Source: Aquabacterium sp. | GTDB taxonomy: Bacteria > Pseudomonadota > Gammaproteobacteria > Burkholderiales > Burkholderiaceae_C | Assembly: GCF_044226965.1 (NCBI RefSeq) | Contig: NZ_JBGAGA010000021.1 | Span: 21,044-85,043, forward strand | Direction of reading: 5' to 3' | DNA: 64,000 bases | In this document: positions 23,399-42,354 of the stretch, piece by piece | How positions within the stretch are numbered: the stretch's first letter is position 1 | Layout of the letters: every line of letters begins with the position of its first letter | Translations under genes and position numbers: made by a program | The notes under the pieces: generated by a model | Seen by the model: the letters and a program-made list of their open reading frames with translations, nothing else | Told to the model about the DNA's origin: nothing | Database searches by the model: none

Positions 23399-23517
23399 CG
23401 GCAGCACCGTGGCGGGCCGGACAGCATGGGGCCCAGTGTACGAAGCCGCCCTGCCGTCGAGACGTCGAGTTACGGGGTTTCGCCCCTGGTATTTGCGCGT
23501 AGGCTGCGCCGGGCGCC

Positions 23518-24572: not shown

Positions 24573-24611
24573 GGAGTTCTCCAGCAGGAGCGGATGGCTA
24601 ACGCCCCAAAC

Positions 24612-24629
24612 TTCGCACGATCGTGCGAA
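24612..24629. promoter_or_regulatory. perfect 18-bp palindrome TTCGCACGATCGTGCGAA (candidate TetR operator O2)
   Basis: It is self-complementary when read by hand. It lies between the tetR stop (24670) and the micro-ORF/hydrolase unit, and a near-copy lies upstream of tetR. Confidence 0.5.
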
Positions 24630-24669
24630 ATATGGGCGGCAGCAAGGTCACGTCGGGCGTTCATGGCGC

Positions 24670-25308: not shown

Positions 25309-25318
25309 GGCCGGAAGA

Positions 25319-25336
25319 TTAGCACGGTCGTGCGAA
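25319..25336. promoter_or_regulatory. imperfect copy of the 18-bp palindrome (TTAGCACGGTCGTGCGAA; candidate TetR operator O1)
   Basis: It shares 16 of 18 positions with the palindrome at 24612-24629. It begins 11 bp upstream of the tetR start codon, in the region divergent from the hybrid kinase gene. Confidence 0.45.
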
Positions 25337-25413
25337 AACCATGTCCGAGCCAGGGTCGGCCGGGATTTGCCGGAGTGGCGGCAGGCCCGCGGCCGCCGCT
25401 AAGATCGTTGCCG

Positions 25414-28305
25414 ATGCCTGATCCCCTGCCGCCGGTACCGGCTGGCCCGCCCGCCGCGCGACGCGAGCTGGACGCGCTGGCGGTGCGCGTGCTGGTCGGC
25501 GTCAGTGCGGCGCTGGGCGTCCTGCTGCTGGGCACCGGTCTGCTGCAAGGCGGACCGCGCGCCGGCCTGCCGTTCGCGGCCGAGCGCATGGTCTTCGGCG
25601 GGGTGCTGCTGCTGGCCGCCGGCGGTGGCTGGCTGCTGCAGCGGCGCGGCCACGCGCGCGGCGCGAGCCTGGGCCTGCTGGCGCTGTGGATCGTCGCCAT
25701 GCACGGCTACGCGGCCGCGTCGGGGCTGGGCCTGCATTCGCTGGCGCTGGGCGGTGCGCCGATGTTCATCGCACTGGCCGGCATGCTGCTGGCGCCCTCG
25801 GCCGCGGCGGCCCTGGCCGTGCTGAACTTCCTGCTGGCGCTGGCGCTGTACGCGGCCGAGCTGCAAGGCCGGCTGGGCGGCGCGGCCCTGCTGGCCACCT
25901 CGACGCCGCTGCCCTACCGCGTCGCGGTGCACGGCCTGCTGAGCCTGGGCGGCCTGCTCACGGCCTTGCTGATGGCACGGCTGATCGGCCGCGGCCTGGG
26001 CCGCGCGCTCGAACAGGAGCACCGCCTGGCGCAGCTGCTGGCGCTGGGCGCCGACTGGACCTGGGCGCTCGACCTGCAGGGCCATGTGACCGCGCTGTCG
26101 GCCTCGTTCGCGCAGCGCACCGGCCGCACGGTGGCCGAGTACCTGCAACTCGGCCGGCCGGGCGGGCCGGTGATCCTGGAGGACGGCGACTGGCCGCAGG
26201 TGCGCGCCGCGCTGCGCACACGCCAGCCCTTCCGCGAGATGCTGATCCACTACCGCTCGGTCGACGGCACGCCGCTGACCGTGCGCGCCAGCGGCGACGT
26301 GGTGCTCGACGAGCAGGGCCGCGCCACCGGCTGGTGGGGCGTCAGCCGCAACGTCAGCGCCCAGGTGCAGGCCGAGGCCGAGCTGCAGCGCTCGAAGGCC
26401 CTGCTCGAGCGCCTGTTCCGCGAGTCGCCCGACGCGATCACCGTGGCCAGCACGCGCGACGGGCGCATCCTGCTGCTGAACGACAGCTTTGCCCGCATCA
26501 CCGGGTTCACCGAGGCCGAAGCGCTGGGCAAGACCGCGCTGGGGCTGGGCCTGTGGCGCGACAAGGAGACGCCGCGCGCGCTGCGCGCCGCGCTGGTCGC
26601 GCACAAGCATGTGCACAACCTGCGCTCGCCGGTGTGGACGCATGACGGGCGGCGCCGCGACATGCTGCTGAACGTCGGCAGCTTCGACTGGGACGGCGAG
26701 CCAGTGGCGGTGATCACCGCGCGCGACATCACCGAGACCGAGCGCGAACGCGCGCAGACCGAGGCCATCCTGGACAACGCCTCGGTCGGCATCGCGCTGG
26801 TGCGCGAGCGCCGCTTCGAACGCGTGAACCCGCAGTTCGAGCGCATGTTCGGCCTGGCCCCGGGCAGCCTGCACGACGCACCGATCAGCCAGGTGTTCGC
26901 CGACACGGCCGGCTACGAAACCTTTATCGGCCAGGTCGACCAGGCCCTGGGCAGCGGGCAGACGCTGGACATCGAGCGCCATGTCACCCGGCCGGACGGC
27001 AGCCGCATCGTCGCGCGCATGCGGGCCCGGGCGGTCGACGCGGCGCAGCCGCGCGAGGCCGGCACCATCTGGGTGGCCGAGGACATCACCGAGCGGCGCG
27101 AAGCGGAGAAGGCGCTGGCCGAGGCGCGCAATGCCGCCGAGGCCGCGAACCAGGCCAAGAGCGCCTTCCTGGCCAGCATGAGCCACGAGATCCGCACGCC
27201 GCTGAACGGCGTGCTGGGCCTGGCGCGGCTGCTGCAGGACCCGGCGCTGGACGAGGCGCGGCGCCGCGAGTACCTGGGCCACCTGGTCGAATCGGCCGAA
27301 GGCCTGGCCGGGCTGGTGTCCGACGTGCTGGACCTGAGCAAGATCGAAGCCGGCCGCCTGCAGCTGGAGCGGCTGCCCTTCGACCTGATCGCGCTGGTCG
27401 AAGGCAGCTTCCGCAGTTTCGCGACCCTGGGCCGCGAGCGCGGCCTGGCGATGCGCTGCGAGCTCGAACCCGGCCTGCCGCGCCAGGTGCTGGGCGACCC
27501 GGTGCGGCTGCGGCAGATCCTGTCGAACTACCTCAGCAACGCGCTGAAGTTCACGCCGGCTGGGCAGATCACTTTGCGCGTTATCAAGGCCGACGCCACG
27601 CACCTGCGCGTGGACGTGATCGACAGCGGCATCGGCATTGCGCCCGAGGCGCGCGAACGCCTGTTCCAGCCCTTCGAGCAGGCCGACGGCTCGACCACGC
27701 GGCGCTTCGGCGGCACCGGGCTGGGCCTGTCGATCTGCCGCCAGCTGGCGCAGCTGATGGGCGGCGAGGTCGGCGTGGACAGCACGCCGGGCCAGGGCAG
27801 CCGCTTCTGGCTGCGGCTGCCGCTGCAGGCCGTCGAACCCGCGCCGCAGCTGCTGCTGCCCGCGCCGGTGCCGGCCAAGGCGCTGGACGGCACGAAGGTG
27901 CTGGTGGTCGAGGACAACCCGGTCAACATGCTGATCATCACCGCGCTGCTGCGCGCGCTGGGGGCCGAGCCGGTGGAGGCACAGGACGGCGCCGAGGCGC
28001 TGCTGATCGCGCGCGACATGAATGCCGAGCTCGCCGCGGTGCTGATGGACCTGCACATGCCGGTGCTCGACGGCCTGGGCGCCGCGCGCGCGCTGGCCGC
28101 CGACGCGCGCACCCGGCACCTGCCGGTGATCGCGCTGTCGGCCGCGGTGCTGGAAAGCGAACGCGAGCAGGCGCTGGCCGCCGGCATGGTCGACTTCGTC
28201 GCCAAGCCGGTGCACGAGGCGGAGCTCAAGCGCGCGCTGGTGCGGCTGATCGCGGCGCCGGCCGCACCGGCTGGCCGCCAGGCACCCGCACCGGATGGCC
28301 GTTAG
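25414..28305 (+). CDS. hybrid sensor histidine kinase/response regulator (multi-TM N-terminus, PAS repeats, HisKA, HATPase, REC)
   Basis: Track ORF 23581..28305 trimmed to ATG at 25414 (MPDPLPPVPAG...). H-box SHEIRTPLNGVLG, N-box NYLSNALKFT, G-boxes DSGIGI and GGTGLGLSI. The receiver reads VLVVEDNPVNM...DLHMPVLDG. Confidence 0.9.
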   Translation: MPDPLPPVPAGPPAARRELDALAVRVLVGVSAALGVLLLGTGLLQGGPRAGLPFAAERMVFGGVLLLAAGGGWLLQRRGHARGASLGLLALWIVAMHGYAAASGLGLHSLALGGAPMFIALAGMLLAPSAAAALAVLNFLLALALYAAELQGRLGGAALLATSTPLPYRVAVHGLLSLGGLLTALLMARLIGRGLGRALEQEHRLAQLLALGADWTWALDLQGHVTALSASFAQRTGRTVAEYLQLGRPGGPVILEDGDWPQVRAALRTRQPFREMLIHYRSVDGTPLTVRASGDVVLDEQGRATGWWGVSRNVSAQVQAEAELQRSKALLERLFRESPDAITVASTRDGRILLLNDSFARITGFTEAEALGKTALGLGLWRDKETPRALRAALVAHKHVHNLRSPVWTHDGRRRDMLLNVGSFDWDGEPVAVITARDITETERERAQTEAILDNASVGIALVRERRFERVNPQFERMFGLAPGSLHDAPISQVFADTAGYETFIGQVDQALGSGQTLDIERHVTRPDGSRIVARMRARAVDAAQPREAGTIWVAEDITERREAEKALAEARNAAEAANQAKSAFLASMSHEIRTPLNGVLGLARLLQDPALDEARRREYLGHLVESAEGLAGLVSDVLDLSKIEAGRLQLERLPFDLIALVEGSFRSFATLGRERGLAMRCELEPGLPRQVLGDPVRLRQILSNYLSNALKFTPAGQITLRVIKADATHLRVDVIDSGIGIAPEARERLFQPFEQADGSTTRRFGGTGLGLSICRQLAQLMGGEVGVDSTPGQGSRFWLRLPLQAVEPAPQLLLPAPVPAKALDGTKVLVVEDNPVNMLIITALLRALGAEPVEAQDGAEALLIARDMNAELAAVLMDLHMPVLDGLGAARALAADARTRHLPVIALSAAVLESEREQALAAGMVDFVAKPVHEAELKRALVRLIAAPAAPAGRQAPAPDGR

Positions 28306-29990
28306 GCCGTCGCCCCCTGCCAGCCCCGCGGCACCGCGCTCATCAGCCGGCGCGTGTAGTCCTGCTTCGGATGCGCCAGGATCTCGGCGGCGCTGGCCTG
28401 CTCGACCACCTCGCCGTCCTTCATCACCATCACCTCGTCGGAGATGAAGCGCACCACCGCCAGGTCGTGGCTGATGAACACGTAGCTCAGGCCCAGCTCG
28501 TCCTGCAGGTCGCGCAGCAGGTTCAGCACCTGCGCCTGCACCGAGACGTCGAGCGCGCTCACCGCTTCGTCCAGCACCAGCACCTCGGGGTCCAGCGTCA
28601 GGCACCGGGCGATCGCCACGCGCTGGCGCTGGCCACCGGAGAACTCGTGCGGGTACTTGCCGAAGGCGCTGGCGTCCAGCCCCACCTTGGCCAGCAGCGC
28701 CTGCGCACGCGCCTCGCGCTCGTGGACGCTGGCGCCGATGCCGTGGATGGTCATCGGCTCGACCAGGGTCTGCCCGATCGTGAAGCGCGGGTTCAGGCTG
28801 GCATAGGGGTTCTGGAACACGATCTGGATGCGCCGGCGCATCAGCTGGCGTTCCGCGTCGCTCAAGGTCAGCAGGTTGCGGCCGTCGAAGATCACCTCGC
28901 CGCCGGTGGGTTCGTGCAGGCGCAGCAGCGTCAGCCCCATCGTCGTCTTGCCCGAGCCCGACTCGCCGACCACGCCCAGCGTGTGGCCGCGCTTCAACTC
29001 GAAGTTGACGTCGCGCACCGCGCGGAATTCGCGCTTGCCGAACAGCCCCTCCTTCAGGAAGAAGCTCTTGGCCAGGCTCTTGACCCGCAGCACCACCGGC
29101 GCGTTCGGGTCCTTGGGCTTGGCCACCGCGGCCGCGGTCGGGGCGCTGCCGTTGGTCTGCGCGATGTGGTCGTCGATCACCGTCAGCCGCGCCGGCGTTT
29201 CGGTCAGGCTCGGGCGGCAGGCCAGCAGCGCCTTGGTGTAGGCGTCCTGCGGCGCGCTGAAGATCTGGGCCACCGGGCCCTGCTCGCGCACCACGCCGTG
29301 GCGCATCACCACCACCTGGTCGGCAATCTCGCCGACCACGCCGAGGTCGTGGCTGATGAACAGCACGCTCATGCGGTGCTTGTCCTTCATCTTCGCGATC
29401 AGCTCGAGGATCTGGCGCTGGATCGTCACGTCCAGCGCGGTGGTGGGCTCGTCGGCGATCAGCAGCTTGGGTTCGCAGGCCAGCGCCATCGCGATCATCA
29501 CGCGCTGCTGCTGGCCGCCGGACATCTCGTGCGGGTAGGCCTTCAGCCGCCGCTTCGGCTCGGGAATGCCCACTTCGGCCAGCAGCGCCTCGGCCCGCTC
29601 GATGGCCTGGCGCCCGCTCATGCCCAGGTGCTTGACCAGCGGCTCGGCCAGCTGCTGGCCGACGGTGAACACCGGGTTCAGCGAGCTCATCGGGTCCTGG
29701 AACACGCAGGCGATCTCGCGCCCGCGCAGCGCCTGCAGCTCGGGCAGCGAGGCATGCAGCAGGTCCTTGCCGTGGTACAGGATGCGGCCCTCGCGTTGCG
29801 CGTTGTCGGGCAGCAGGTTCAGCACGCTCATCGCGGTGACGCTCTTGCCCGAGCCCGATTCGCCGACCAGCGCCACGGTGCTGTTCTCGGGAATGTCGAA
29901 GCTCACGCCCTTGACGGCCTGCGCCAGCGTGGTGGCGCCGCGCTGGCCCATGCGGAAGGCGACCTTGAGGTCCTGGATACTGAGCAGCAT
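28302..29990 (-). CDS. peptide-type ABC transporter ATP-binding protein, fused double ATPase (YejF/GsiA-like)
   Basis: Track ORF trimmed to ATG at 29990 (MLLSIQDLKVAF...). It has two Walker A motifs (GESGSGKSV, GESGSGKTT) and two signatures (MSGGQQQR, FSGGQRQR). It is 562 aa. Confidence 0.9.
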   Translation of the reverse strand: MLLSIQDLKVAFRMGQRGATTLAQAVKGVSFDIPENSTVALVGESGSGKSVTAMSVLNLLPDNAQREGRILYHGKDLLHASLPELQALRGREIACVFQDPMSSLNPVFTVGQQLAEPLVKHLGMSGRQAIERAEALLAEVGIPEPKRRLKAYPHEMSGGQQQRVMIAMALACEPKLLIADEPTTALDVTIQRQILELIAKMKDKHRMSVLFISHDLGVVGEIADQVVVMRHGVVREQGPVAQIFSAPQDAYTKALLACRPSLTETPARLTVIDDHIAQTNGSAPTAAAVAKPKDPNAPVVLRVKSLAKSFFLKEGLFGKREFRAVRDVNFELKRGHTLGVVGESGSGKTTMGLTLLRLHEPTGGEVIFDGRNLLTLSDAERQLMRRRIQIVFQNPYASLNPRFTIGQTLVEPMTIHGIGASVHEREARAQALLAKVGLDASAFGKYPHEFSGGQRQRVAIARCLTLDPEVLVLDEAVSALDVSVQAQVLNLLRDLQDELGLSYVFISHDLAVVRFISDEVMVMKDGEVVEQASAAEILAHPKQDYTRRLMSAVPRGWQGATA

Positions 29991-29994
29991 GGTC

Positions 29995-31071
29995 TTACTC
30001 GGCTCCGCGCAGTTTGGGGTCCAGCGCGTCACGCCAGCCGTCGGCCATCAACGAGAACGCGGTGACGAACACCGCCATGAACACGGTGGCCGCGGCCAGC
30101 TGCCACCAGTAGCCGAGGATCAGCTCGGCCTGCGATTCGGCCAGCATCGTGCCCCAGCTGACCTGGTCGATCGGCACGCCCAGGCCCAGGTAGGACAGGA
30201 TCACCTCGCTCTTGATGAAGCCGACCACCAGCAGGCTCATGCGCACCAGGATCACGTGGCTGACGTTGGGCAGGATGTGGCGGAACATGCGCGAGCCCGA
30301 CGAGGCACCGATGGCCTCGGCGGCGCGCACGTACTCGCGCGTGGAATGCTTGATGAACTCGGCCCGCACCTGGCGGTACACCGTGGTCCAGCCGACCAGG
30401 CTGAGGATGATCACGATGGTCCAGATGCCGCGCGGGATGATCGCGTCGGCGCGGTTCAGCACCGCGGCCAGCGTGAAGATCAGCAGGATGTCGGGGATGG
30501 ACGTGAAGACGGTGTAGAGCCACTCGAGGAAGTCGCCGATCCTGCCGCCGAAGAAGCCGGCCAGCGCCCCCAGCAGGGTGCCGAACACCGCGGCCAGCAC
30601 GGCCGCCAGCAGGCCCACCGCCACCGACACCTGCGTGCCCTTGATGGCCTTGGACAGCACGTCGCGGCCCAGCCGGTCGCCGCCGAAGGGCAGCGTCTCG
30701 GCCTTCACCGTGTCGGTGGTCTTCAGCTTGGCGGCACGCTCGGCCCATTCCTTGTAGCGCGGCGCCAGCGGGTCGATCGAGCTCAGGTCGACGTTCGGGC
30801 CCTTGGGCGTGGCGATGGCGCCGGTGGCCTCGGGCGGCTTGGGGCCGATGAAGTGCGGCGGCGCATTGGCCACGCCCACTTCGCGGCCCCAGTCCTTGGC
30901 CACCAAGCCCAGGCCCGAGGCCAGGATCAGCAGCAGGAACGCGAACACGATGCACATCGACGTCAGCGCGACGCGGTCGCCCTTGAAGCGGCGCCACGCG
31001 GCATGCCACACGCCTTCGGAATGCACGATGGTGGCGGGCGCCGCCACCGGCGAATTCAGCACCGCGCTCAT
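29995..31071 (-). CDS. peptide-type ABC transporter permease (DppC/YejE-like, long N-terminal periplasmic loop)
   Basis: Track ORF trimmed to ATG at 31071 (MSAVLNSPVAAPATIVHSEGVWHAAWRRFKGDRVAL...). Its ATG overlaps the stop of the upstream permease (ATGA). It contains the EAA-like region REYVRAAEAIGAS. Confidence 0.9.
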   Translation of the reverse strand: MSAVLNSPVAAPATIVHSEGVWHAAWRRFKGDRVALTSMCIVFAFLLLILASGLGLVAKDWGREVGVANAPPHFIGPKPPEATGAIATPKGPNVDLSSIDPLAPRYKEWAERAAKLKTTDTVKAETLPFGGDRLGRDVLSKAIKGTQVSVAVGLLAAVLAAVFGTLLGALAGFFGGRIGDFLEWLYTVFTSIPDILLIFTLAAVLNRADAIIPRGIWTIVIILSLVGWTTVYRQVRAEFIKHSTREYVRAAEAIGASSGSRMFRHILPNVSHVILVRMSLLVVGFIKSEVILSYLGLGVPIDQVSWGTMLAESQAELILGYWWQLAAATVFMAVFVTAFSLMADGWRDALDPKLRGAE

Positions 31072-32006
31072 TTGAGAACCACCCGGGGATCGACGACCTT
31101 GTAGAGGATGTCGGTGCCGAGGTTGATGAACATCGTCAGCACCGCCAGGTACACCGTGGTGGCCTGGATCACCGGATAGTCGCTGCGGTTCACCGCCAGC
31201 AGCACCTCGCGGCCGAGGCCGGGGATCGAGAAGAACACCTCGATCAGGAACGAGCCGACGAAGATGCCCGGCAGCGCCAGGCCGACGTTGGTGAGGATCG
31301 GGATCATCGCGTTGCGCAGCACGTGCTTGAACAGCACCGTGCCTTCCTGCAGGCCCTTGGCGCGCGCGGTGCGCACGTAGTCGTGGCCGAGTTCGTCGAG
31401 GAAGAAGCTGCGGTACAGCCGCGTCTGCGGCGACACGCCCACCAGCACCGCCAGCAGCACCGGCAGCGGCGTGTAGGTGGTGAGGTTGGTCCAGGTCGAA
31501 TCGCTCCAGCCCTGCACCGGGAACCAGCCGAGCTGGAAGCCGAACACATACTGGCCGACGATGATGTAGACCAGGAAGCTGATCGACAGCGCGACGGTGG
31601 TGACGATCATCAGCAAACGGTCGGTCAGCGAGCCGCGCACGTAGGCCACGCCCAGCGCGATCGGGATCGCCAGCAGCGTGTCCAGCAGCAGGATCGGGAT
31701 CATCACCGTCAGCGTGGCCGGCAGCCGGGTGGCGAACAGGTGGCTCACCGCCTCGTTGGTGGCCCAGCTCTTGCCCCAGTCGAAGGTGGCGATCTGCTTC
31801 AGGAAGATGCCCAGCTGCACGTACCAGGGCTCGTTCAGGCCCAGCTGCTGGCGGATGGCATTGACCTGGTCGGCCGTGGCGTTGAGGCCACCGAGGATTT
31901 CGGCCGGGTCGCCGCCGAAGAAATGGAAGAGCACGAACACCAGCAGCACCACGCCGATCAGCGTCGGAATCATTTGCCACAGGCGTCGTATCAGGTAGGC
32001 CACCAT
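31068..32006 (-). CDS. peptide-type ABC transporter permease (DppB/OppB-like)
   Basis: Track ORF trimmed to ATG at 32006 (MVAYLIRRLWQMIPTLIGVVLLVFVLFHFFGGDP...). It contains DYVRTARAKGL. Confidence 0.9.
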   Translation of the reverse strand: MVAYLIRRLWQMIPTLIGVVLLVFVLFHFFGGDPAEILGGLNATADQVNAIRQQLGLNEPWYVQLGIFLKQIATFDWGKSWATNEAVSHLFATRLPATLTVMIPILLLDTLLAIPIALGVAYVRGSLTDRLLMIVTTVALSISFLVYIIVGQYVFGFQLGWFPVQGWSDSTWTNLTTYTPLPVLLAVLVGVSPQTRLYRSFFLDELGHDYVRTARAKGLQEGTVLFKHVLRNAMIPILTNVGLALPGIFVGSFLIEVFFSIPGLGREVLLAVNRSDYPVIQATTVYLAVLTMFINLGTDILYKVVDPRVVLK

Positions 32007-32233
32007 GACGCGCGGAACTCCATGCACGGGCCGCCGACGCTCGTGGCGCGGCCGCCCCAATTTCGGGATGCGCGAGTGTAGGACCCCCACACTGGCGCGC
32101 TCCCCTATCGCAAACCCCGTGCCGGGGGTACTCCGGCAGCAGGGGAAGCGGCCCTTAGACTCGGCACTTCGCCAACTGCTGTTCCTGGCGCACCCGGCCA
32201 CCACCCCGAGCCGGCGCTGCCCAAAAAGCCCTG

Positions 32234-34078
32234 ATGAGCCGACCCCTGCTCCTGGCGCTGACCACGAGTCTGCTGCTGTGCCTGCCGCTGCGCCTGCAGC
32301 CGGCGCTGGCCAATGCGCCGGCCTCCCCCCCCGCGGCCAGCGGCGTGAAGACACTGCGCTACGCCTTCCGCGTGGCCGAGACCTCGTTCGACCCGATCCA
32401 GGTCACCGACCTGTATTCGCGCACCGTGGTCGGCAACATCTTCGAGGCGCCGCTCGAATTCGCGCTGATGGCGCGACCCTTCCAGGTGCGGCCCAACACC
32501 GCGGCGGCGATGCCCGAGGTGTCGGCCGATTTCAAGACCATCACGCTCCGGCTCAAGCCCGGCATCCACTTCGCCGACGACCCCGCGTTCAAGGGCCGCA
32601 AGCGCGAGCTGACCGCGGCCGACTACGTCTACAGCATCAAGCGCCACTACGACCCGCGCTGGAAGAGCGGCAACCTCTACGTGATGGAGAACGCGCGCAT
32701 CCTCGGCCTGTCCGAGCTGCGGCAGAAGCTGCTGCGCGAGAACAAGCCTTTCGACTACGACACCGAGGTCGAAGGCCTGAAGGCGCTGGACCGCTACACG
32801 CTGCAGTTCCGCTTCGCCGAACCGCAGCCGCGCTTCCTGTACCTGCTGGGCGACAGCGCGCTGTTCCCGGCCATGGCGCGCGAGGTGTGCGAGGCCTATG
32901 GCGACAAGATCGGCGCCCACCCGGTGGGCACCGGGCCGTACCGGCTGGCGCAATGGGTGCGCTCGTCGAAGATCGTGCTCGACCGCAACCCCGGCTACCG
33001 CGAGGTGCTGTACGACGAGCAGCCGCCGCCGGACGATGCGCGGCTGCAGGCGATCGCGCAGCGCTATCAAGGCCGGCGCCTGCCGCTGAACGACCGCGTC
33101 GAGGTCTCGATCATCGAGGAGAACCAGCCGCGCTGGCTGGCCTTCCTGAACGCCGAGCACGACCTGCTCGAAGAGGTGCCGGTCGATTTCGCGCCGCAGG
33201 TGCTGCCGAACAACCAGCTCGCGCCGCACCTGGCCAGGCGCGGCATCGGCATGGAGCGCTACCTGCGCGCCGACATCTCGGCCTCGTACTTCGCGATGGA
33301 GCATCCGGTGGTCGGCGGCTACACGCCCGAGCGCGTGGCGCTGCGCCGCGCCATCGCGCTGGCGGTGGACGTGGACCGCGAGATCCGCCTGGTGCGGCGC
33401 GGCCAGGCGATTCCGGCGCAATCGACCGTCGGCCCCAACACCTGGGGCTACGACCCGGCGTTCAAGAGCGAGATGAGCGAGTTCGACCGCGCCAAGGCAC
33501 GCGCGCTGCTGGACATGCACGGCTACGTCGACCGCAATGGCGACGGCTGGCGCGAGCAGCCCGACGGCACGCCGCTGGTGCTGGAATACGCCTCGCAGCC
33601 CGACCAGGAACGCAAGCAGCTGGCCGAGCACTGGAAGGCCAACATGGACGCCATCGGCATCCGCATCGTCTTCAAGCTGGCCAAGTGGCCCGAGCAGCTG
33701 AAGGCCTCGCGCGCGGGCAAGCTGATGATGTGGGGCGTGGGCTGGTCGGCCACCGTGCCCGATGCCGATGCCTTCCTCGAACTCGGCTACGGCCCGAACA
33801 AGGGCCAGGCCAACCATGCGCGCTTCGACCTCCCGTCCTATAACGCGTTACATGATCGTCAACGTGCGCTGCCCGACGGCCCCGAGCGCGCCGCGCTGAT
33901 CGAGCAGCAGAAGAAGCTGATGGTGGCCTACATGCCCTACAAGGCGCATGTGCACCGCGTGTTCACCGACCTGACCCAGCCCTGGGTGCAGGGCTACCAC
34001 CGCAACGTGTTCGCGCGCAACAGCTGGAAGTACGTGGACATCGACCTGGCCGAGCTGCAGCGGCGGAGCGCCCAATGA
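32234..34078 (+). CDS. ABC transporter substrate-binding protein, family 5, ~600-aa class (paralog 1, clade A)
   Basis: Sec-type signal MSRPLLLALTTSLLLCLPLRLQPALA, then KTLRYAFRVAETSFDPIQVTDLYSRTV...RELTAADYVYSIKRHYDPRW...KPFDYDTEVEGLKALDRYTL. Confidence 0.9.
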   Translation: MSRPLLLALTTSLLLCLPLRLQPALANAPASPPAASGVKTLRYAFRVAETSFDPIQVTDLYSRTVVGNIFEAPLEFALMARPFQVRPNTAAAMPEVSADFKTITLRLKPGIHFADDPAFKGRKRELTAADYVYSIKRHYDPRWKSGNLYVMENARILGLSELRQKLLRENKPFDYDTEVEGLKALDRYTLQFRFAEPQPRFLYLLGDSALFPAMAREVCEAYGDKIGAHPVGTGPYRLAQWVRSSKIVLDRNPGYREVLYDEQPPPDDARLQAIAQRYQGRRLPLNDRVEVSIIEENQPRWLAFLNAEHDLLEEVPVDFAPQVLPNNQLAPHLARRGIGMERYLRADISASYFAMEHPVVGGYTPERVALRRAIALAVDVDREIRLVRRGQAIPAQSTVGPNTWGYDPAFKSEMSEFDRAKARALLDMHGYVDRNGDGWREQPDGTPLVLEYASQPDQERKQLAEHWKANMDAIGIRIVFKLAKWPEQLKASRAGKLMMWGVGWSATVPDADAFLELGYGPNKGQANHARFDLPSYNALHDRQRALPDGPERAALIEQQKKLMVAYMPYKAHVHRVFTDLTQPWVQGYHRNVFARNSWKYVDIDLAELQRRSAQ

Positions 34079-35904
34079 AGCGGCGCGCCGTCTCCGGCCT
34101 GGCCGCGGCGATGCTGGCCGCGCCGCTGCTGCCCGTGCGCGCGGCCGAGGCCGGGCGCAGGAAGGTGCTGAACATCGCGTTCGCGGCGGCGGAGACCAGC
34201 CTCGACCCGGTCAAGATCAACGACAACTACTCGCGCACCGTCACGCCGCACATCTTCGAGGGCCTGTACCGCTTCGACCACCTGGCCCGGCCGGTGAAGA
34301 TCCGCCCGCTGCTGGCCGAGGGCATGCCCGAGGTCTCGGCCGACTTCCGGGTCTGGACCGTCCGGCTGCGGCGCGGCGTGTACTTTGCCGACGATCCCGC
34401 CTTCCAGGGCCGGCGCCGCGAGCTGGTGGCGCAGGACTTCGTCTACGCGTTCAAGCGCGCCTTCGACCCCGCCAACAAGAGCCCCTTCGTCGGCGGCATG
34501 ATCGCGCAGGGCTTCGTCGGCCTGAACGCGCTGCGCGACGAGGCGATCCGCGAGAAGAAACCGTTCGACTACGAGCGCCCGGTCGAAGGCCTGCAGGCGC
34601 TGGACCGCCACACCCTGCGCTTCGTCGTCGAGCAGCCGCGCCCGCGCCTGCTGGACATCCTGGCCTGGTCCGACCAGCTCGGCGCGGTGGCGCGCGAGGT
34701 GGTCGAGTTCTACGGCGACCAGATCGACGCGCACCCGGTGGGCACCGGCCCGTTCCGGCTGAAGCAGTGGCGCCGGTCCTCGCTGATCGTGCTGGAGCGC
34801 AACCCGCAGTTCCGCGAGGAGTTCTACGACGAGCAGCCCGCGCCCGACGACGCCGAGGGCCAGGCCATCCTGGCGAAGCTCAAGGGCAGGCGCCTGCCGA
34901 TGGTCGACGAGGTGCGCATCTCGATCATCGACGAGAGCCAGCCGCGCTGGCTGGCCTTCCTGAACGGCGACAACGACCTGATCGCCTCGCGCGCGAACGC
35001 GGTGCCGACCGACTACTTCGCCACCGCGATGCCCAACGGCAAACTGGCGCCGAACCTGGCCAAGCGCGGCATCCAGGCCTGGCGCATCGTCAACCCCGAC
35101 ACCGGGCTGACGCTGTTCAACATGGACAACCCGATGGTCGGCGGCTACACGCCCGAGAAGGTGGCGCTGCGCCGCGCGATTTCGCTGGCCTACGACAACG
35201 CGCGCGAGATCCGCCTGCTGCGCCGCGGCGGCGCGATCCCCGCGCAATCGCCGATCGTGCCGCACACCAGCGGCTACGACCCGGCCTTCAAGAGCGAGAT
35301 GAGCGACTACGACCCGGCCCGCGCCAAGGCGCTGCTGGACCTGTACGGCTATGTCGACCGCGACGGCGATGGCTGGCGCGAGCAGCCCGACGGCTCGCCG
35401 CTGCTGCTGGAAATGGCCACCCAGCCCGAGCAGCGCAACCGCGACTTCGATGCGCTGTGGAAGAAGTGCCTCGATGCGGTGGGCATCCGCATCCGCTTCG
35501 TCACCGGCCAGTGGCCGGAGAACCTGAAGGCCGCGCGCGCCGGCAGGCTGATGATGTGGACCCTGGGCTCCTCGGCCGACACCGCCGACGGCCAGGGCAG
35601 CCTGGCACGGCTGTACGGCCCCGAGATCGGCAGCCAGAACATGGCGCGCTTCAAGCTGCCGGCCTTCGACGCCCTGTACGACCGCATGAAGGCCCTGCCT
35701 GACGGCCCCGAGCGCGACGCGCTGTACCTGGAGGCCAAGCGCCTTGCGGTGGCCTACATGCCGTGGAAATTCCACGTCCACCGCATCGAGGTGGACCTGG
35801 CCCATCCCTGGGTCATCGGCTACCGCCGCACCGTGTTCTGGAACCAGTGGTGGCACCTGATCGACATCGACACCGCGCAGCAACCTGCGCCACGACACGC
35901 ATGA
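34075..35904 (+). CDS. ABC transporter substrate-binding protein, family 5 (paralog 2, clade B)
   Basis: Its ATG overlaps the stop of paralog 1 (ATGA at 34075). It reads KVLNIAFAAAETSLDPVKINDNYSRTV...RELVAQDFVYAFKRAFDPANKS...VVEFYGDQIDAHPVGTGPFRLKQWRR. Confidence 0.9.
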   Translation: MKRRAVSGLAAAMLAAPLLPVRAAEAGRRKVLNIAFAAAETSLDPVKINDNYSRTVTPHIFEGLYRFDHLARPVKIRPLLAEGMPEVSADFRVWTVRLRRGVYFADDPAFQGRRRELVAQDFVYAFKRAFDPANKSPFVGGMIAQGFVGLNALRDEAIREKKPFDYERPVEGLQALDRHTLRFVVEQPRPRLLDILAWSDQLGAVAREVVEFYGDQIDAHPVGTGPFRLKQWRRSSLIVLERNPQFREEFYDEQPAPDDAEGQAILAKLKGRRLPMVDEVRISIIDESQPRWLAFLNGDNDLIASRANAVPTDYFATAMPNGKLAPNLAKRGIQAWRIVNPDTGLTLFNMDNPMVGGYTPEKVALRRAISLAYDNAREIRLLRRGGAIPAQSPIVPHTSGYDPAFKSEMSDYDPARAKALLDLYGYVDRDGDGWREQPDGSPLLLEMATQPEQRNRDFDALWKKCLDAVGIRIRFVTGQWPENLKAARAGRLMMWTLGSSADTADGQGSLARLYGPEIGSQNMARFKLPAFDALYDRMKALPDGPERDALYLEAKRLAVAYMPWKFHVHRIEVDLAHPWVIGYRRTVFWNQWWHLIDIDTAQQPAPRHA

Positions 35905-37709
35905 ACGCCCTGCTCCGACTGCTCCTCCTGTGCATCGCCGCCGCCCTGCCGCTGGCGGCCACGGCCGACGAACCGAAGAAGGTGCTGCGCGTGGCCTTCA
36001 GTTCGGCCGAGACCGGGTTCGATCCGGTCAAGCTCAACGACCTGTACTCGCGCGCCATCACCGCGCACATCTTCGAGGCGCTGTACCAGTACGACCCGCT
36101 GGCGCGGCCGACGAAGATCCGGCCGCTGCTGGCCGACGGCATGCCCGTGTCCTCGCCCGACTTCAAGGTCTGGACGATCAAGGTCAGGCGCGGCATCTAC
36201 TTCGCCGACGACCCCGCCTTCAAGGGCAGGAAGCGCGAGGTGACGGCGCAGGACTTCGTCTACGTCTTCAAGCGCGTGTTCGACCCGGCCAACAAGAGCG
36301 CCGGCCTGGGCGAGCTGGACTCGGTGGGCTTCGTCGGCCTGATGGCGCAGTACCAGGAGGCGGTGAAGACCCGCAAGCCCTTCGACTACGACCGCGAGGT
36401 CGAAGGCATCAAGGCGCTGGACCGCTACACGCTGCGCATCACGCTGGAAGCACCGCGGCCACGTCTGCTGGAAGTCCTGGCGCAGTCGGACCTGTACGGC
36501 GCCATGGCGCGCGAGGTGGTCGAGTTCTACGGCGACCAGATCGACGCGCACCCGGTGGGCACCGGCCCGTTCCGGCTGAAGCAGTGGCGCCGCTCGTCGC
36601 TGATCGTGCTGGAGCGCAACCCCGACTACCGCGAGGAGCACTACACGGCCGAGCCCGCGGCCGACGATGCCGAAGGCCAGGCCATCCTGGCCCGGCTCAA
36701 GGGCAAGCGCATGCCCTTGATCGACGAGGTGCAGGTCTCGATCATCAACGAAAGCCAGCCGCGCTGGCTGGCCTTCCTGAACGGCCAGATCGACGCGCTG
36801 GCGACCCAGACCGGCGCGGTGCCCATCGAGTTCGTCAACATCGCGATGCCCGGCGGCCACCTCGCCCCCAACCTGGCCCGGCGCGGCATCCAGGGCTGGC
36901 AGGTGGTGAACCCGGACGCCGGCGTCTCGTTCTTCAACATGGAGAACCCGGTCGTCGGCGGCTACACGCCCGAGAAGGTGGCGCTGCGCCGCGCCATCTC
37001 GCTGGCCTACGACGTGCAGCGCGAGATCCGCGTCGTGCGCCGCGGCATCGGCGTGCCGGCGCAGTCGATGCTGGTGCCGCACACCAGCGGCTACGACCCG
37101 GCGTTCAAGAGCGAGATGGGCGACTACGACCCGGCGCGCGCCAAGGCGCTGCTGGACCTGTACGGCTACGTCGACCGCGACGGCGACGGCTGGCGCGAGC
37201 AGCCCGACGGCTCGCCGCTGGTGCTGGAGATGACCACGCAGCCGGAACAGCGCAACCGCGACTTCGACCTGGTGTGGAAGAAGTGCATGGACGCGATCGG
37301 CATCCGCATCCGCTTCATCACCGGCCAGTGGCCGGAGAACCTGAAGTCGGCCCGCGCCGGCAAGCTGATGATGTGGCAGCTCGGCGGCTCGGCCGACAAG
37401 CCCGACGGCCAGGGCTCGCTGGCGCGCTACTACGGGCCCGAAGCCGGTGCGCAGAACCTGGCGCGCTTCAAGCTCGAGGCCTTCGACAAGCTGTACGACC
37501 AGCTGCAGGCGCTGCCCGACGGGCCCGAGCGCGACAAGCTGTTCCTCGAAGCCAAGCGCCTGACCACCGCCTACATGCCCTGGAAGGCGCATGTGCACCG
37601 GGTCGAGATCGACCTGGTGCAGCCCTGGGTCGTCGGCTACCGGCGCCCGCTGTTCTGGACCGAATGGTTCCAGTACGTCGACATCGACCCGAGCAAGCGG
37701 CCAAACTGA
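35901..37709 (+). CDS. ABC transporter substrate-binding protein, family 5 (paralog 3, clade B)
   Basis: Track ORF 35763..37709 trimmed to ATG at 35901, which overlaps the stop of paralog 2 (ATGA). The signal peptide is MNALLRLLLLCIAAALPLAATA. Motifs are as in paralog 2. Confidence 0.9.
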   Translation: MNALLRLLLLCIAAALPLAATADEPKKVLRVAFSSAETGFDPVKLNDLYSRAITAHIFEALYQYDPLARPTKIRPLLADGMPVSSPDFKVWTIKVRRGIYFADDPAFKGRKREVTAQDFVYVFKRVFDPANKSAGLGELDSVGFVGLMAQYQEAVKTRKPFDYDREVEGIKALDRYTLRITLEAPRPRLLEVLAQSDLYGAMAREVVEFYGDQIDAHPVGTGPFRLKQWRRSSLIVLERNPDYREEHYTAEPAADDAEGQAILARLKGKRMPLIDEVQVSIINESQPRWLAFLNGQIDALATQTGAVPIEFVNIAMPGGHLAPNLARRGIQGWQVVNPDAGVSFFNMENPVVGGYTPEKVALRRAISLAYDVQREIRVVRRGIGVPAQSMLVPHTSGYDPAFKSEMGDYDPARAKALLDLYGYVDRDGDGWREQPDGSPLVLEMTTQPEQRNRDFDLVWKKCMDAIGIRIRFITGQWPENLKSARAGKLMMWQLGGSADKPDGQGSLARYYGPEAGAQNLARFKLEAFDKLYDQLQALPDGPERDKLFLEAKRLTTAYMPWKAHVHRVEIDLVQPWVVGYRRPLFWTEWFQYVDIDPSKRPN

Positions 37710-37722
37710 GCGTCCACCCACA

Positions 37723-39549
37723 ATGCCCTCCCTGCCCCTCACCCGCCGCCGCGTTGGCCAGTTCGCCGGCGCCTGGGCGCTGGCCGCGCCGCTGACGGGC
37801 GTGCGCGCCGAAGGCGGCCGCAAGGTGCTGCGCTTCGCGTTCAGTTCGGCCGAATCCAGCTTCGACCCCATCAAGGTCAACGACCTGTACTCGCGCACGA
37901 TCACGCCGCACATCTTCGAGGGCCTGTACCACTACGACCACCTGGCGCGGCCGGCGAAGATCAAGCCGCAGCTGGCCGAGGGCATGCCCGAGGTCTCGGC
38001 CGACTTCCGGGTGTGGACGGTCCGGCTCAAGCGCGGCGTCTTCTTCGCCGACGACCCCGCGTTCAAGGGCCAGAAGCGCGAGCTGGTGGCGCAGGACTTC
38101 GTCTACAGCTTCAAGCGCGTGTTCGACCCCGCGAACAAGAGCCCGATCGTCGGGGGCATGATCACCGTCGGCCTCACCGGCCTGAACGCGCTGCGCGAGG
38201 AAGCCATCGCCAGGAAGATCCCGTTCGACTACGGGCGCGAGGTGGAGGGCATCCGCGCGCTGGACCGCTACACGCTGCGCATCACGCTGGACCAGCCGCG
38301 CCCGCGCCTGCTGGAAACGCTGGCCCAGCCCGACCTGCTGGGCGCGGTGGCGCGCGAGGTGGTCGAGTTCTACGGCGACAAGATCGACGCGCACCCGGTG
38401 GGCACCGGCCCGTTCCGGCTCAAGCAGTGGCGCCGCGGCTCGCTGATCGTGCTGGAGCGCAGCCCCGACTACCGCGAGGTGCTGTACGACGCCGAGCCGG
38501 CGACCGACGATGCCGAGGGCCAGGCGCTGCTGGCGCGCTTCAAGGGCCGCCGTCTGCCGCTGATCGACGAGGTGCAGGTCTCGATCATCCTGGAGAACCA
38601 GCCGCGCTGGCTGTCCTTCCTGAACGGCCAGATCGACATGCTGGCCACGCTGGCGAACGCGGTGCCCAGCGAGTACATCAACCAGGCCATGCCCAACGGC
38701 AAGCTGGCGCCGAACCTGGCCAGGCGCGGCATCGTCGGCCGGCGCCAGGTCAATTCCGACAACGCGCTGACCATGTTCAACATGGAAGACCCGGTCGTCG
38801 GCGGCTACACGCCCGAGAAGGTGGCGCTGCGCCGCGCGATGTCGCTGGGCTACGACGTGCAGCGCGAGATCCTGGTCTACTGGCGCGGCGCGGCCATTCC
38901 CGCGCAGTCGCCGATCGTGCCGCACACCAGCGGTTACGACCCGGCCTTCAAGAGCGAGATGAGCGACTACGACCCGGCCCGCGCCAAGGCGCTGCTGGAC
39001 CTGTACGGCTATGTCGACCGCGATGGCGACGGCTGGCGCGAGCGCCCCGACGGCTCGCCGCTGCTGATCGAGATGACCACCCAGCCCGAGCAGCGCTTCC
39101 GCACCTTTGACGAGTTATGGAAGAAGGCGCTCGACGCGCTGGGCATCCGCGTCAAGTTCATCATCGGCCAGTGGCCGGAGAACCTGAAGGCCGCGCGTGC
39201 CGGCAAGCTGATGATGTGGCAGCTGTCCTCGTCGGCCGCGGGGCTGGATGGGCAGAGCGCGCTGGCACGCCTGTACGGCCCCGAAGCCGGCAGCCAGAAC
39301 ATGCCGCGCTTCAAGCTGGCTGCCTTCGACCGCCTGTACGAGCGCATGCAGGCGCTGCCCGACGGCCCCGAGCGCGACGCGCTGTTCCTCGAGGCCAAGC
39401 GCATCGCCGCCACCTACCTGCCGTGGAAGAACCGCATCCACCGCATCGATGCCGACCTGATGTGGCCCTGGGTCGTCGGCTACCGCCGGCCGCTGTTCTG
39501 GCAGGACTGGTGGCAGTACATCGACATCGACGACACGAAGAGGGCATGA
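37723..39549 (+). CDS. ABC transporter substrate-binding protein, family 5 (paralog 4, clade B)
   Basis: Track ORF 37591..39549 trimmed to ATG at 37723, 13 nt after the stop of paralog 3. It begins MPSLPLTRRRVGQFAGAWALAAPLTGVRA, a twin-Arg-like signal. Motifs are as in paralogs 2 and 3. Confidence 0.9.
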   Translation: MPSLPLTRRRVGQFAGAWALAAPLTGVRAEGGRKVLRFAFSSAESSFDPIKVNDLYSRTITPHIFEGLYHYDHLARPAKIKPQLAEGMPEVSADFRVWTVRLKRGVFFADDPAFKGQKRELVAQDFVYSFKRVFDPANKSPIVGGMITVGLTGLNALREEAIARKIPFDYGREVEGIRALDRYTLRITLDQPRPRLLETLAQPDLLGAVAREVVEFYGDKIDAHPVGTGPFRLKQWRRGSLIVLERSPDYREVLYDAEPATDDAEGQALLARFKGRRLPLIDEVQVSIILENQPRWLSFLNGQIDMLATLANAVPSEYINQAMPNGKLAPNLARRGIVGRRQVNSDNALTMFNMEDPVVGGYTPEKVALRRAMSLGYDVQREILVYWRGAAIPAQSPIVPHTSGYDPAFKSEMSDYDPARAKALLDLYGYVDRDGDGWRERPDGSPLLIEMTTQPEQRFRTFDELWKKALDALGIRVKFIIGQWPENLKAARAGKLMMWQLSSSAAGLDGQSALARLYGPEAGSQNMPRFKLAAFDRLYERMQALPDGPERDALFLEAKRIAATYLPWKNRIHRIDADLMWPWVVGYRRPLFWQDWWQYIDIDDTKRA

Positions 39550-39617
39550 GCCCGCCCGGCCGCCCGAAGGGCGAATTCCCTCCTGGAGGGACGGCGCGCA
39601 GCGCCAAGGGTGCACCA

Positions 39618-41414
39618 ATGAGCCATCGCGGGCTGCGGCGACGCGACTGGCTGGCCGGCAGCCTGGGCCTGGCCGCGGCCACCGGTGCCGCCGCCAGCCG
39701 CGAGGGTCCCAAGACGCTGCGCCTGGCGCTGCCCGCCACCGAGACGCAGCTCGACCCCGCGCAAAGCGAGAGCAGCTACTACACCTACCAGGTCATCGCC
39801 AGCATCTTCGAATCGCCGCTGGGCTACGACTACCTGGCGCGCCCGCCACGGCTGGTGCCGCTGACGGCCGAGGCGCTGCCCGAGATCCCGGCCGACTACC
39901 GCCAGATCACGCTGCGCATCCGGCCCGGCATCTTCTTCGCCGACGACCCGGCGTTCCAGGGCCGCCCGCGCGAGCTGACCGCGGCCGACTACGTCTACAG
40001 CCTCAAGCGCTTCTACGACCCGCGCTGGAATTCGGCCGACCTGTACATCTTCGAAGGCGCGAAGCTGCTGGGCCTGAGCGAGCTGCGCCAGCAGGCGCTG
40101 AAGAGCGGCAAGCCCTTCGACTACGACACCGAGGTCGAAGGCCTGAAGGCGCTGGACCGCTACACGCTGCGCATCCGCCTGGCCGACCCCGACCCCCGCT
40201 TCGTCTACCAGCTGGCGCTGCCCTACCTGAGCGGCGCGGTGGCGCGCGAAGTCGCCGAGCGCTACGGCCCCGACATCGGCACGCATCCAGTGGGTACCGG
40301 CGCCTACCGGCTCGCCAGCTGGCGCCGCGGCTCGCTGATCGTGCTGGAGCGCTCGCCCGGCTTCCGCGGCGAGGTCTACAGCGGCCAGCCGGCCGAGACG
40401 CCGCTGGCCCAGTCGATAGCGCATGAATTGAGCGGCCAGCGCCTGCCGCTGATCGACCGCATCGAGTTCAGCATCATCGAGGAGCCGCAGCCGTACTGGC
40501 TGTCCTTCGTCAACGGCCGGCTGGACATGATCGAGGCGCGCGGCAGCTACGGCCAGCTGGCGGTGCCCAACGGCCATCTCGCGCCCTTCCTGCGCAAGCA
40601 GGGCGTGCAGCTGGCGCTCGAACCGCAGGCCGACATGCAGATGACCTACTTCAACTGCGAGGACCCGGTCGTCGGCGGCAACACGCCCGAGAAGGTGGCG
40701 CTGCGCCGGGCCATCGCGCTGGCGCACGACGGCGCGCTGTGGCGGCGCATCGTGCGCGGCGGGCTGGCGGTGCCGGCGCAGTCGCCGATCGCGCCCTACA
40801 CCTACGGCTACGAGCCCGACTACCGCAGCGAGATGAGCGAATACGACCCGGCCAAGGCGCGCGCGCTGCTGGACCTGTACGGCTATGTCGACCGCGACGG
40901 CGACGGCTGGCGCGAGGCGCCCGACGGCCGGCCGCTGACCTTGCGCATCGCCTCGCTGGCCGACCAGCTGGGCCGCGACGGCAACGAGGTCTGGTACCGC
41001 AGCCTGCGCGCCGTCGGCCTGCGCGTGGTGTTCGAGCCCGCCGGCTGGGGCGAGCTGCTGCGCCGCTCGCGCGCCGGCAGCCTGATGATGTGGGGCTACG
41101 CCTGGAGCGCCGCCACGCCCGACGGCGCCTTCTTCCTCGGCATTGCCTACGGGCCGAACGCCAGCGAATCGAACGACGCGCGCTTCCGGCTGCCGGCCTT
41201 CGACAAGCTGTACGAACGCCAGCGCGTGCTGCCCGACGGCCCCGAGCGCGCCGCGCTGATGCGCGAGGCCAAGAATCTGATGGTGGCCTACATGCCGTAC
41301 AAAGTGCACGGCCATCGCATCCAGGCCGACCTGCTGCAGCCCTGGCTGCGCCACTACTGGCGGCATCCGTTCATGCGCGACATCTGGCGGTATCTGGACC
41401 TGGCGTCGCACTGA
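39618..41414 (+). CDS. ABC transporter substrate-binding protein, family 5 (paralog 5, clade A)
   Basis: Track ORF 39117..41414 trimmed to ATG at 39618 (MSHRGLRRRDWLAGSLGLAAATGAAAS, Tat-like). An alternative in-frame ATG at 39546 overlaps the stop of paralog 4 (ATGA). It shares RELTAADYVYSLKRFYDPRW and KPFDYDTEVEGLKALDRYTL with paralog 1. Confidence 0.85.
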   Translation: MSHRGLRRRDWLAGSLGLAAATGAAASREGPKTLRLALPATETQLDPAQSESSYYTYQVIASIFESPLGYDYLARPPRLVPLTAEALPEIPADYRQITLRIRPGIFFADDPAFQGRPRELTAADYVYSLKRFYDPRWNSADLYIFEGAKLLGLSELRQQALKSGKPFDYDTEVEGLKALDRYTLRIRLADPDPRFVYQLALPYLSGAVAREVAERYGPDIGTHPVGTGAYRLASWRRGSLIVLERSPGFRGEVYSGQPAETPLAQSIAHELSGQRLPLIDRIEFSIIEEPQPYWLSFVNGRLDMIEARGSYGQLAVPNGHLAPFLRKQGVQLALEPQADMQMTYFNCEDPVVGGNTPEKVALRRAIALAHDGALWRRIVRGGLAVPAQSPIAPYTYGYEPDYRSEMSEYDPAKARALLDLYGYVDRDGDGWREAPDGRPLTLRIASLADQLGRDGNEVWYRSLRAVGLRVVFEPAGWGELLRRSRAGSLMMWGYAWSAATPDGAFFLGIAYGPNASESNDARFRLPAFDKLYERQRVLPDGPERAALMREAKNLMVAYMPYKVHGHRIQADLLQPWLRHYWRHPFMRDIWRYLDLASH

Positions 41415-41445: not shown

Positions 41446-42354
41446 ATGCATTCGCCACCCCTGCTGCTGCTGCCGCCCGACCCTTCGCTGATCCCGGCCT
41501 ACCGCGCCGCGCTGCTGGCGGCCGACCCGTCGCTGGACGTGACCGGCTACAGCCGCGAGCTGGATGACGCGCAGCTCGCGCGCATCGAGGTCGTGCTCGG
41601 CTGGCGCCTGCCGCCGGGGCTGGCGCCGCGCCTGCCGCGGCTGCGCTGGGTGTGCTCGATCGCCGCCGGCGTCGAGAAGCTCCTGGTGCCCGAGCTGCCG
41701 CCGCAGGTGCCGGTGTCGCGCATCGTCGACCCCGACCAGGCGCTGGGCATGGCGCAGCATGTGGCGCTGATGGTGCTGCGCCATGCCCGCGCGCTGCCGC
41801 TGTACGAGCAGCAGCAGCAGGTGCGCAGCTGGGCGCGCCACCCGAAGGCCGCGGCGCGGCACCGCGTCGCGATCCTCGGCTTCGGCGAGGTCGGCCGCGC
41901 CATCGCCGAGCCGCTGCGCGCGCTGGGCTTCGCGGTCGAGGGCTGGCGGCGCGACAGCGGCCCGCTGCACGCGCTGCTGGCGCGCAGCGACATCGTCGTC
42001 AACACGCTGCCGCTGACGCCGGCCACGCAGGGCCTGCTCGACGCCGGCTGCTGGGCCGCGATGCCGCGCGGCGGCTACTTCATCAACGTGGCGCGCGGCG
42101 GCCATGTCGACGAGGCCGCGCTGATCGCCGCGGTGCAGTCGGGCCAGCTGGCCGGCGCCGCGCTCGACGTGCAGCAGACCGAGCCGCTGCCGCCGGACGA
42201 CCCGCTGTGGGCCGTGCCCGGCATCCTGATCACGCCGCACATCGCCGCGCAATCCTCGCTGGAGACCGTGGCCGCGCAGTTCGTCGCCGGGCTGCGCTGC
42301 CTGCAGCGCGGCGAGCCGCTGCCCCATCCGGTGGACCGCACGCGCGGCTACTGA
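41446..42354 (+). CDS. D-isomer-specific 2-hydroxyacid dehydrogenase family (GhrA-like)
   Basis: NAD-binding motif VAILGFGEVGRAIA, then YFINVARGGHVDEAAL, then ITPHIAA. It starts 31 nt after paralog 5. Confidence 0.85.
   Translation: MHSPPLLLLPPDPSLIPAYRAALLAADPSLDVTGYSRELDDAQLARIEVVLGWRLPPGLAPRLPRLRWVCSIAAGVEKLLVPELPPQVPVSRIVDPDQALGMAQHVALMVLRHARALPLYEQQQQVRSWARHPKAAARHRVAILGFGEVGRAIAEPLRALGFAVEGWRRDSGPLHALLARSDIVVNTLPLTPATQGLLDAGCWAAMPRGGYFINVARGGHVDEAALIAAVQSGQLAGAALDVQQTEPLPPDDPLWAVPGILITPHIAAQSSLETVAAQFVAGLRCLQRGEPLPHPVDRTRGY

Follow-up and report, generated by a model that had tools for sequence, protein, structure and literature searches.

A 64-kb stretch of Aquabacterium DNA, referred to here as the window, holds a peptide-type ATP-binding cassette (ABC) importer in which two permease genes and a fused ATPase gene face five consecutive genes for family-5 substrate-binding proteins (SBP1 to SBP5, the receptors). 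We regard it as likely that these genes encode one Opp/Dpp-type (family-5, cluster-C) importer, its PermB, PermC and fused ATPase being served by five different receptors from a packed tandem array. The divergent core at 28302-32006 and the five family-5 genes had been described in an earlier note on this DNA. Pfam domains confirmed the description, with SBP_bac_5 (PF00496) present in five of five receptors (E 1e-56 to 1e-67), and all genes are intact. The features are listed below with the lineage and export assignments that are developed in later sections (Sec, general secretory pathway; Tat, twin-arginine translocation; nt, nucleotides).

28302-29990, minus strand: fused double ATPase, 562 residues, with two ABC_tran domains (PF00005 in two stretches, E 5.5e-65) and an oligo_HPY extension (PF08352)
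29995-31071, minus strand: PermC, OppC/DppC-type permease, 358 residues, PF00528 and PF12911 (OppC_N), with a long periplasmic loop after the first transmembrane helix (TM1)
31068-32006, minus strand: PermB, OppB/DppB-type permease, 312 residues, PF00528 and PF19300
32007-32233, no strand: divergent intergenic region of 227 nt, presumed seat of both promoters
32234-34078, plus strand: SBP1, 614 residues, PF00496, Sec-like signal, group 1 lineage, which leads the array in most relatives
34075-35904, plus strand: SBP2, 609 residues, PF00496, clade B, twin-Arg as KRR with ambiguous export route, ATGA overlap with SBP1
35901-37709, plus strand: SBP3, 602 residues, PF00496, clade B, Leu-rich Sec-like signal, ATGA overlap with SBP2
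37723-39549, plus strand: SBP4, 608 residues, PF00496, clade B, twin-Arg-like signal TRRRVGQF, 13-nt gap after SBP3
39550-39617, no strand: spacer of 68 nt containing the palindrome TCCCTCCTGGAGGGA (39577-39591)
39618-41414, plus strand: SBP5, 598 residues (622 if the start is at 39546), PF00496, twin-Arg signal LRRRDWLAG, group 5

The importer core and the adjacent receptors

The locus combines a family-5 receptor, OppB- and OppC-type permeases and two ATPase domains with the oligopeptide-type extension, the features that define importers of the Opp/Dpp/Nik type (PepT, TC 3.A.5). The core genes are closely spaced, as the permB stop overlaps the permC ATG as ATGA and 4 nt separate the permC stop from the ATPase gene. 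The ATPase is 45% identical to E. coli YejF across its full length, and in NCBIfam it scored 570 bits with the GsiA model (cut-off 1077) and 562 bits with the YejF model, both under cut-off. The best NCBIfam models for PermB were Opp2B, Opp4B and GsiC, all likewise under cut-off. No second permease/ATPase set was found within the window. Reading of the translations showed an unusually long periplasmic segment in PermC between TM1 and TM2 (roughly residues 55-130), and a PermB region matching the DppB scoop loop that reads GGLNAT and is without the Glu-Arg pair (compared with PMC12136057).

The intergenic region at 32007-32233 is 96% identical to that of the nearest relative. Consensus scans, which are uninformative at 70% GC, returned no sigma-70 consensus in this region (one promoter-like match was obtained, at 31583-31610 within permB) and no terminator-like site between the receptor genes or from SBP5 to the next genes. 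The three weak terminator consensus matches, within permC, SBP2 and SBP4, were fewer than shuffled sequence would give, and no Rfam match to a regulatory RNA or riboswitch was obtained at the locus.

The receptor junctions read as the earlier note had given them: there are ATGA overlaps at both 34075 and 35901, and 13 nt (37710-37722) separate SBP3 from SBP4. A further ATGA at 39546, offered there as a possible SBP5 start, is present in the sequence but is probably not used. The ATG at 39618 is favoured because 7 of the 24 codons in 39546-39617 end in A or T by eye, compared with roughly 8% of codons in the genes of this locus, and because the SBP5 orthologs have a short stretch of 2-10 residues ahead of their RR motif. 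The spacer at 39550-39617, with its palindrome and the unused ATGA, could be the scar of a deletion or a site for a regulator.

The five receptors are 50-74% identical to one another. SBP2, SBP3 and SBP4 share 71-74% identity, in keeping with the three-quarters estimated earlier by eye; SBP1 is 55% identical to SBP5 and 54-56% to SBP2-4, and SBP5 is 50-51% identical to SBP2-4. A database protein from Aquabacterium sp., annotated as an ABC transporter substrate-binding protein, is 100% identical to SBP1. Receptor homologs with E < 1e-20 number more than 8000, and the best 120 listed were all unnamed or generically named. None of the receptors reached the NCBIfam equivalog cut-offs for DppA, OppA, GsiB, NikA, SapA or the staphylopine receptor (GsiB model 49-76 bits, cut-off 594). 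Our search for close solved structures found none; the best sequence matches, with E about 1e-25, were partial. Modelled with AlphaFold2 (mean local confidence, pLDDT, 88.5; predicted template-modelling score, pTM, 0.85), SBP1 has the cluster-C fold. At about 20% identity and with target-normalised template-modelling (TM) scores of 0.77-0.86, the best PDB matches of the model were H. pylori DppA, MppA, DppA, GbpA and OppA; the structural matches also included AgaA, NikA and a sialic-acid binder. A literature search on this receptor subfamily in Rubrivivax or Aquabacterium returned nothing relevant. The receptors belong to a longer (about 600 residues), functionally uncharacterised subfamily that appears to have no conserved Gly-Asp-Asn motif.

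Array turnover and receptor lineages

Species-representative genomes were scanned with SBP3, which gave 40 related loci (numbered with the prefix L) onto which the window proteins were then mapped. The loci come from Rubrivivax, Aquabacterium, Piscinibacter, Rhizobacter, Ideonella, Methylibium and other Burkholderiales, and also from the more distant Casimicrobiaceae. The layout is constant (13 related loci share the core-plus-array arrangement, and 15 have bounded arrays): the genes for ATPase, PermC and PermB occupy one strand, and the receptor array lies opposite them on the other. Receptors were counted only where the array was bounded, as follows.

1 receptor: L022, L024
2 receptors: L004, L017, L020, L021
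3 receptors: L005, L007
4 receptors: L006, L025
5 receptors: the window, L008
6 receptors: L014; L001 and L002 together

L001 and L002 belong to the nearest relative (88-98% protein identity), and the count of six presupposes that the SBP3 ortholog bridges the two contigs. L023 is a solitary receptor homolog with no nearby core. In a long-read metagenome-assembled genome (L026, 5570-12818) the receptor genes look fragmented or frameshifted, which could reflect sequencing error or real decay. Since relatives in Rubrivivax, Aquabacterium, Piscinibacter and Methylibium carry 1 to 6 receptors under the same divergent layout, multi-receptor arrays are ordinary in this lineage, with turnover by tandem birth and death. 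The earlier suggestion that five receptors on one core are unusual is therefore not supported, and cases from P. aeruginosa and Borrelia burgdorferi have been characterised as well (PMC4206461, PMC12728205, PMC5736914).

A neighbor-joining tree was built from 64 full-length homologs from the related loci with 100 bootstraps. The B clade, which includes SBP2, SBP3 and SBP4, received a bootstrap value of 100, and the B subclade that unites the window copies with those of close relatives 99. Group 5 (SBP5 and three orthologs) received 98 and group 1 (SBP1 and about eleven orthologs) 64-81, while the branching order of group 1, group 5 and B is an unresolved trichotomy at 23%. The earlier note had proposed two clades in an A-B-B-B-A order. 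Its B clade stands, and the peptide motifs it quoted, RRRVGQF and RRRDWL among them, are all present, but its A clade does not: SBP1 and SBP5 are 55% identical, and the motifs that they have in common (DYVYSxKRxYDPRW and KPFDYDTEVEGL) also occur in the outgroup proteins L024_1 and L029_1. These motifs are thus best read as retained ancestral states, and the B motifs as derived. The receptors accordingly fall on the tree into three lineages (1, B-B-B and 5), SBP1 and SBP5 appearing as separate old lineages with no joint clade.

Recombination was considered for both sets of likenesses. A mosaic or conversion origin of the motifs common to SBP1 and SBP5 was rejected in view of the same states in the outgroups, and gene conversion or a chimeric SBP4 behind the likeness of SBP2, SBP3 and SBP4 was rejected on sliding-window identity, which revealed neither tracts nor a chimera. 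On the tree, L014, L008 and the L005-L007 group each show a B-clade expansion of their own. An additional receptor gene, 4' (L002_3), lies in the nearest relative between its SBP4 and SBP5 orthologs, at the place of the 68-nt spacer in the window. The window lineage has probably lost this copy, since the tree puts the 4' duplication before the split of the two species. The history of the array is one of tandem copy birth and death, in which old group-1 and group-5 receptors flank a derived, recently duplicated B clade.

Selection, ligand pockets and export signals

Selection was estimated by the Nei-Gojobori method as the ratio of nonsynonymous (dN) to synonymous (dS) divergence. SBP1, SBP2, SBP4 and SBP5 against their orthologs in the nearest relative gave dN/dS of 0.20-0.31 at dS 0.19-0.29, indicating that each of the four is maintained by purifying selection. 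Among the paralogs SBP2, SBP3 and SBP4 the ratio was 0.58-0.69 at a similar dS of 0.28-0.37, consistent with faster amino-acid change after duplication.

The receptors were also aligned with E. coli DppA, OppA and GsiB, and compared at the position of DppA D436 (mature D408) and OppA D419. This Asp binds the free amino group of the peptide (PMC12136057, PMC12728205). In SBP1 to SBP5 the aligned residues are T, D, D, A and A, and the position is hypervariable across the family, in an alignment that is indicative at about 20% identity. Near-identical pockets, which the earlier note had said would weaken the case for diversification, were thus not seen. Receptor diversification rather than dosage, as that note had proposed, is supported at the sequence level by the 50-74% identity, the ortholog dN/dS and the differing pocket motif. 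It is very improbable that five redundant copies merely raise receptor abundance. The tandem, translationally coupled layout would suit such a dosage role, and the range from 1 to 6 copies among relatives suggests that copies are dispensable; however, the copies are only moderately alike, they represent three old lineages each kept across genera, and purifying selection acts on all those copies whose ortholog is complete.

The free N-terminus of a peptide may go unrecognised by some of the copies. As three of the five (SBP1, SBP4 and SBP5) are without the N-terminus-binding Asp, at least some of the ligands are probably not ordinary free peptides, with peptides or peptide-like compounds as the default for the fold. 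A rival reading has the array widening the uptake of some other compound class, as binders of opines, glutathione, nickel chelates, heme, sialic acid and oligosaccharides are found in family 5 too. The unreached equivalog cut-offs, the Asp that is missing from three copies and not conserved in the family at the aligned site, the presence of GbpA, AgaA, NikA and the sialic-acid binder among the structural matches, and a glyoxylate-type dehydrogenase and aminotransferase pair directly downstream would all agree with non-peptide ligands. The top structural and sequence matches are nevertheless peptide binders, the downstream pair is confined to the closest relatives and no catabolic partner is conserved across the loci. 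We hold this reading to be possible though on the unlikely side.

In the set of 64 homologs, a twin-Arg in the n-region is accompanied by a core of weak hydrophobicity: the highest Kyte-Doolittle mean over 12 residues is about 1.0-2.0 with the twin-Arg and about 2.1-3.1 without it. The five receptors were assigned as follows.

SBP1: no twin-Arg, core 2.39, Sec-like
SBP2: KRR, core 2.01, ambiguous
SBP3: no twin-Arg, core 2.80, Sec-like
SBP4: twin-Arg, core 1.32, Tat-like
SBP5: twin-Arg, core 1.34, Tat-like

Mixed signals had been noted before, with SBP1 to SBP3 taken as Sec-like. This agrees with our assignments for SBP1 and SBP3, and for the twin-Arg signals of SBP4 and SBP5, while the Sec-like reading of SBP2 is uncertain on account of its KRR and weakly hydrophobic core. 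RR is present in all four group-5 proteins. A mix of Sec-like and Tat-like signals recurs in the arrays L006 and L014, suggesting that it is a trait of the family.

A probable single core with five receptors

The arrangement can be compared with several known systems. P. aeruginosa DppBCDF works with DppA1-5, one core with five receptors whose distinct ligand profiles broaden the range of substrates (PMC4206461, PMC12728205). As in that system, where four of the receptors cluster beside the core, the locus has five paralogous family-5 receptors per core. The P. aeruginosa array is broken by porin, peptidase and regulator genes, whereas here five contiguous genes diverge from the core. The P. 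aeruginosa receptors are about 530 residues long and all carry Gly-Asp-Asn, while those here are about 600 residues long with Asp at the aligned site in two of five (at about 20% identity). The P. aeruginosa ATPases, DppD and DppF, are separate and the one here is fused.

In Borrelia burgdorferi, five oligopeptide-binding proteins, OppA1-5, feed one Opp transporter (PMC5736914, PMC7822543). The likeness lies in five receptors on one system, and the Borrelia pockets vary structurally; beyond the family level the Borrelia receptors are unlike these in sequence, and the Borrelia ATPases are not fused. Three of the Borrelia receptor genes lie in tandem beside the permease genes; the receptors are lipoproteins, and plasmids encode two of them. 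In E. coli, OppA and MppA, which differ in specificity, use one OppBCDF, so that differing receptors again meet on one Opp-type translocator; there are two of them, one encoded remotely, and no tandem array.

Both ATPase domains also lie in one polypeptide in E. coli GsiABCD and YejABEF, which have one receptor per system compared with five here. The YejABEF/Npp importer of microcin C (peptidyl-nucleoside) was considered in view of the 600-residue receptors and fused ATPase and was rejected, as SBP1 matched YejA at 26% over 93 residues (E 1e-4) and the permeases were far under cut-off (YejB model 127 bits vs 445, YejE model 108 vs 439). The glutathione importer GsiABCD was rejected on the GsiA and GsiB scores given above. 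The contiguous coupled array, the fused ATPase, the longer subfamily without conserved Gly-Asp-Asn and the mixed export signals do not change the kind of system that this is.

The neighbouring genes were examined for hints to the ligand. Downstream lie a GhrA-like 2-hydroxyacid dehydrogenase (41446-42354, plus strand) and a BhcA-like class-V aspartate/serine-glyoxylate aminotransferase (42383-43582, plus strand). The dehydrogenase gene begins 32 nt past SBP5 with no terminator-like site between, and the pair may be co-transcribed with the array. Both genes are kept in L002, from the nearest relative, and the dehydrogenase alone in L003. Across the related loci we found no conserved catabolic neighbours that would hint at a ligand, just ordinary chromosomal synteny. 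A gene of roughly 690 residues follows the array in five loci (L010 11772-13898, L014 17261-19318, L017, L020 and L021) and looks by eye like an acetoacetyl-CoA/acyl-CoA synthetase. Further along the window, a stand-alone T2SSE secretion/pilus-type ATPase (43682-45598, plus strand) carries an N-terminal MshEN, a module that binds cyclic di-GMP, and has no secretion gene adjacent.

On the other side of the core, a hybrid histidine kinase (23581-28305, plus strand) has PAS, HisKA, HATPase and receiver domains C-terminally and about 900 N-terminal residues without a Pfam domain. Its start is probably later than 23581, since a GGDEF gene occupies the opposite strand up to 24517. That gene (21287-24517, minus strand) and an adjacent paralog (19170-21290, minus strand) encode TPR-plus-GGDEF diguanylate cyclases and overlap by 4 nt, stop on start. 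The kinase and ATPase genes converge, and their stop codons overlap at 28302-28305.

Some of the five copies could instead act in signalling or chemotaxis, as sensors or co-receptors, or could serve a core elsewhere. DppA proteins of P. aeruginosa have been linked to chemotaxis and to signalling in biofilms, and for DppA5 no peptide binding was detected (PMC12728205); the solitary homolog in L023 and the large kinase that abuts the core point the same way. The kinase, however, is not syntenic in any related locus, and the five genes form one coupled array adjoining the core, which leaves such roles improbable.

A single importer with five receptors would work as follows. The divergent promoter region would allow receptor levels to be set independently of the core, and the overlapping or near-abutting stop and start codons would couple translation from SBP1 to SBP4. 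SBP1 and SBP3 would be exported by Sec, and SBP4, SBP5 and perhaps SBP2 by Tat. Each receptor would then capture its own ligand set, dock on the common PermB/PermC surface and trigger ATP-driven uptake.

Several points weigh against this reading. We infer the docking of all five receptors to the core from adjacency alone, and other cores could lie outside the 64-kb window. GC content at third codon positions (GC3) is 92%, which compresses dS and inflates the paralog dN/dS, and SBP3, whose complete ortholog is absent from the comparison loci, stands outside the ortholog set used for dN/dS. The pocket comparison with DppA and OppA is made at about 20% identity, and the function of the canonical Asp might be taken over by another one, almost invariant, that lies three residues downstream. 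As for export, the strict TatP pattern RR.[FGAVML][LITMVF] fails in SBP2, SBP4 and SBP5, passing in L014_6, L003_2, L006_2, L006_3 and L007_2, and an NCBIfam scan of the N-termini, Tat-signal model included, matched no family.

A broader proposal is that the locus belongs to a lineage-wide, fast-turnover receptor cassette of Rubrivivax and Aquabacterium, marked by the subfamily of about 600 residues, repeated independent amplification of B, loss of the canonical Asp in many copies and a Sec/Tat split within one operon. We consider this doubtful. If true, these features together would point to ligands other than ordinary free peptides and to selection for receptor novelty rather than mere breadth.

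The locus leaves the understanding of this transporter class unchanged, and its main value is as a well-resolved instance of tandem receptor turnover and as a way into an abundant receptor subfamily. It adds an environmental Burkholderiales example, among the larger contiguous arrays; across the relatives, copies repeatedly duplicated in tandem and lost have moved the number between 1 and 6. Multi-receptor ABC importers gain a wider diet without duplicating the membrane machinery. As the subfamily is very abundant and without functional annotation, screening its members for ligands would assign functions to many environmental genes together.

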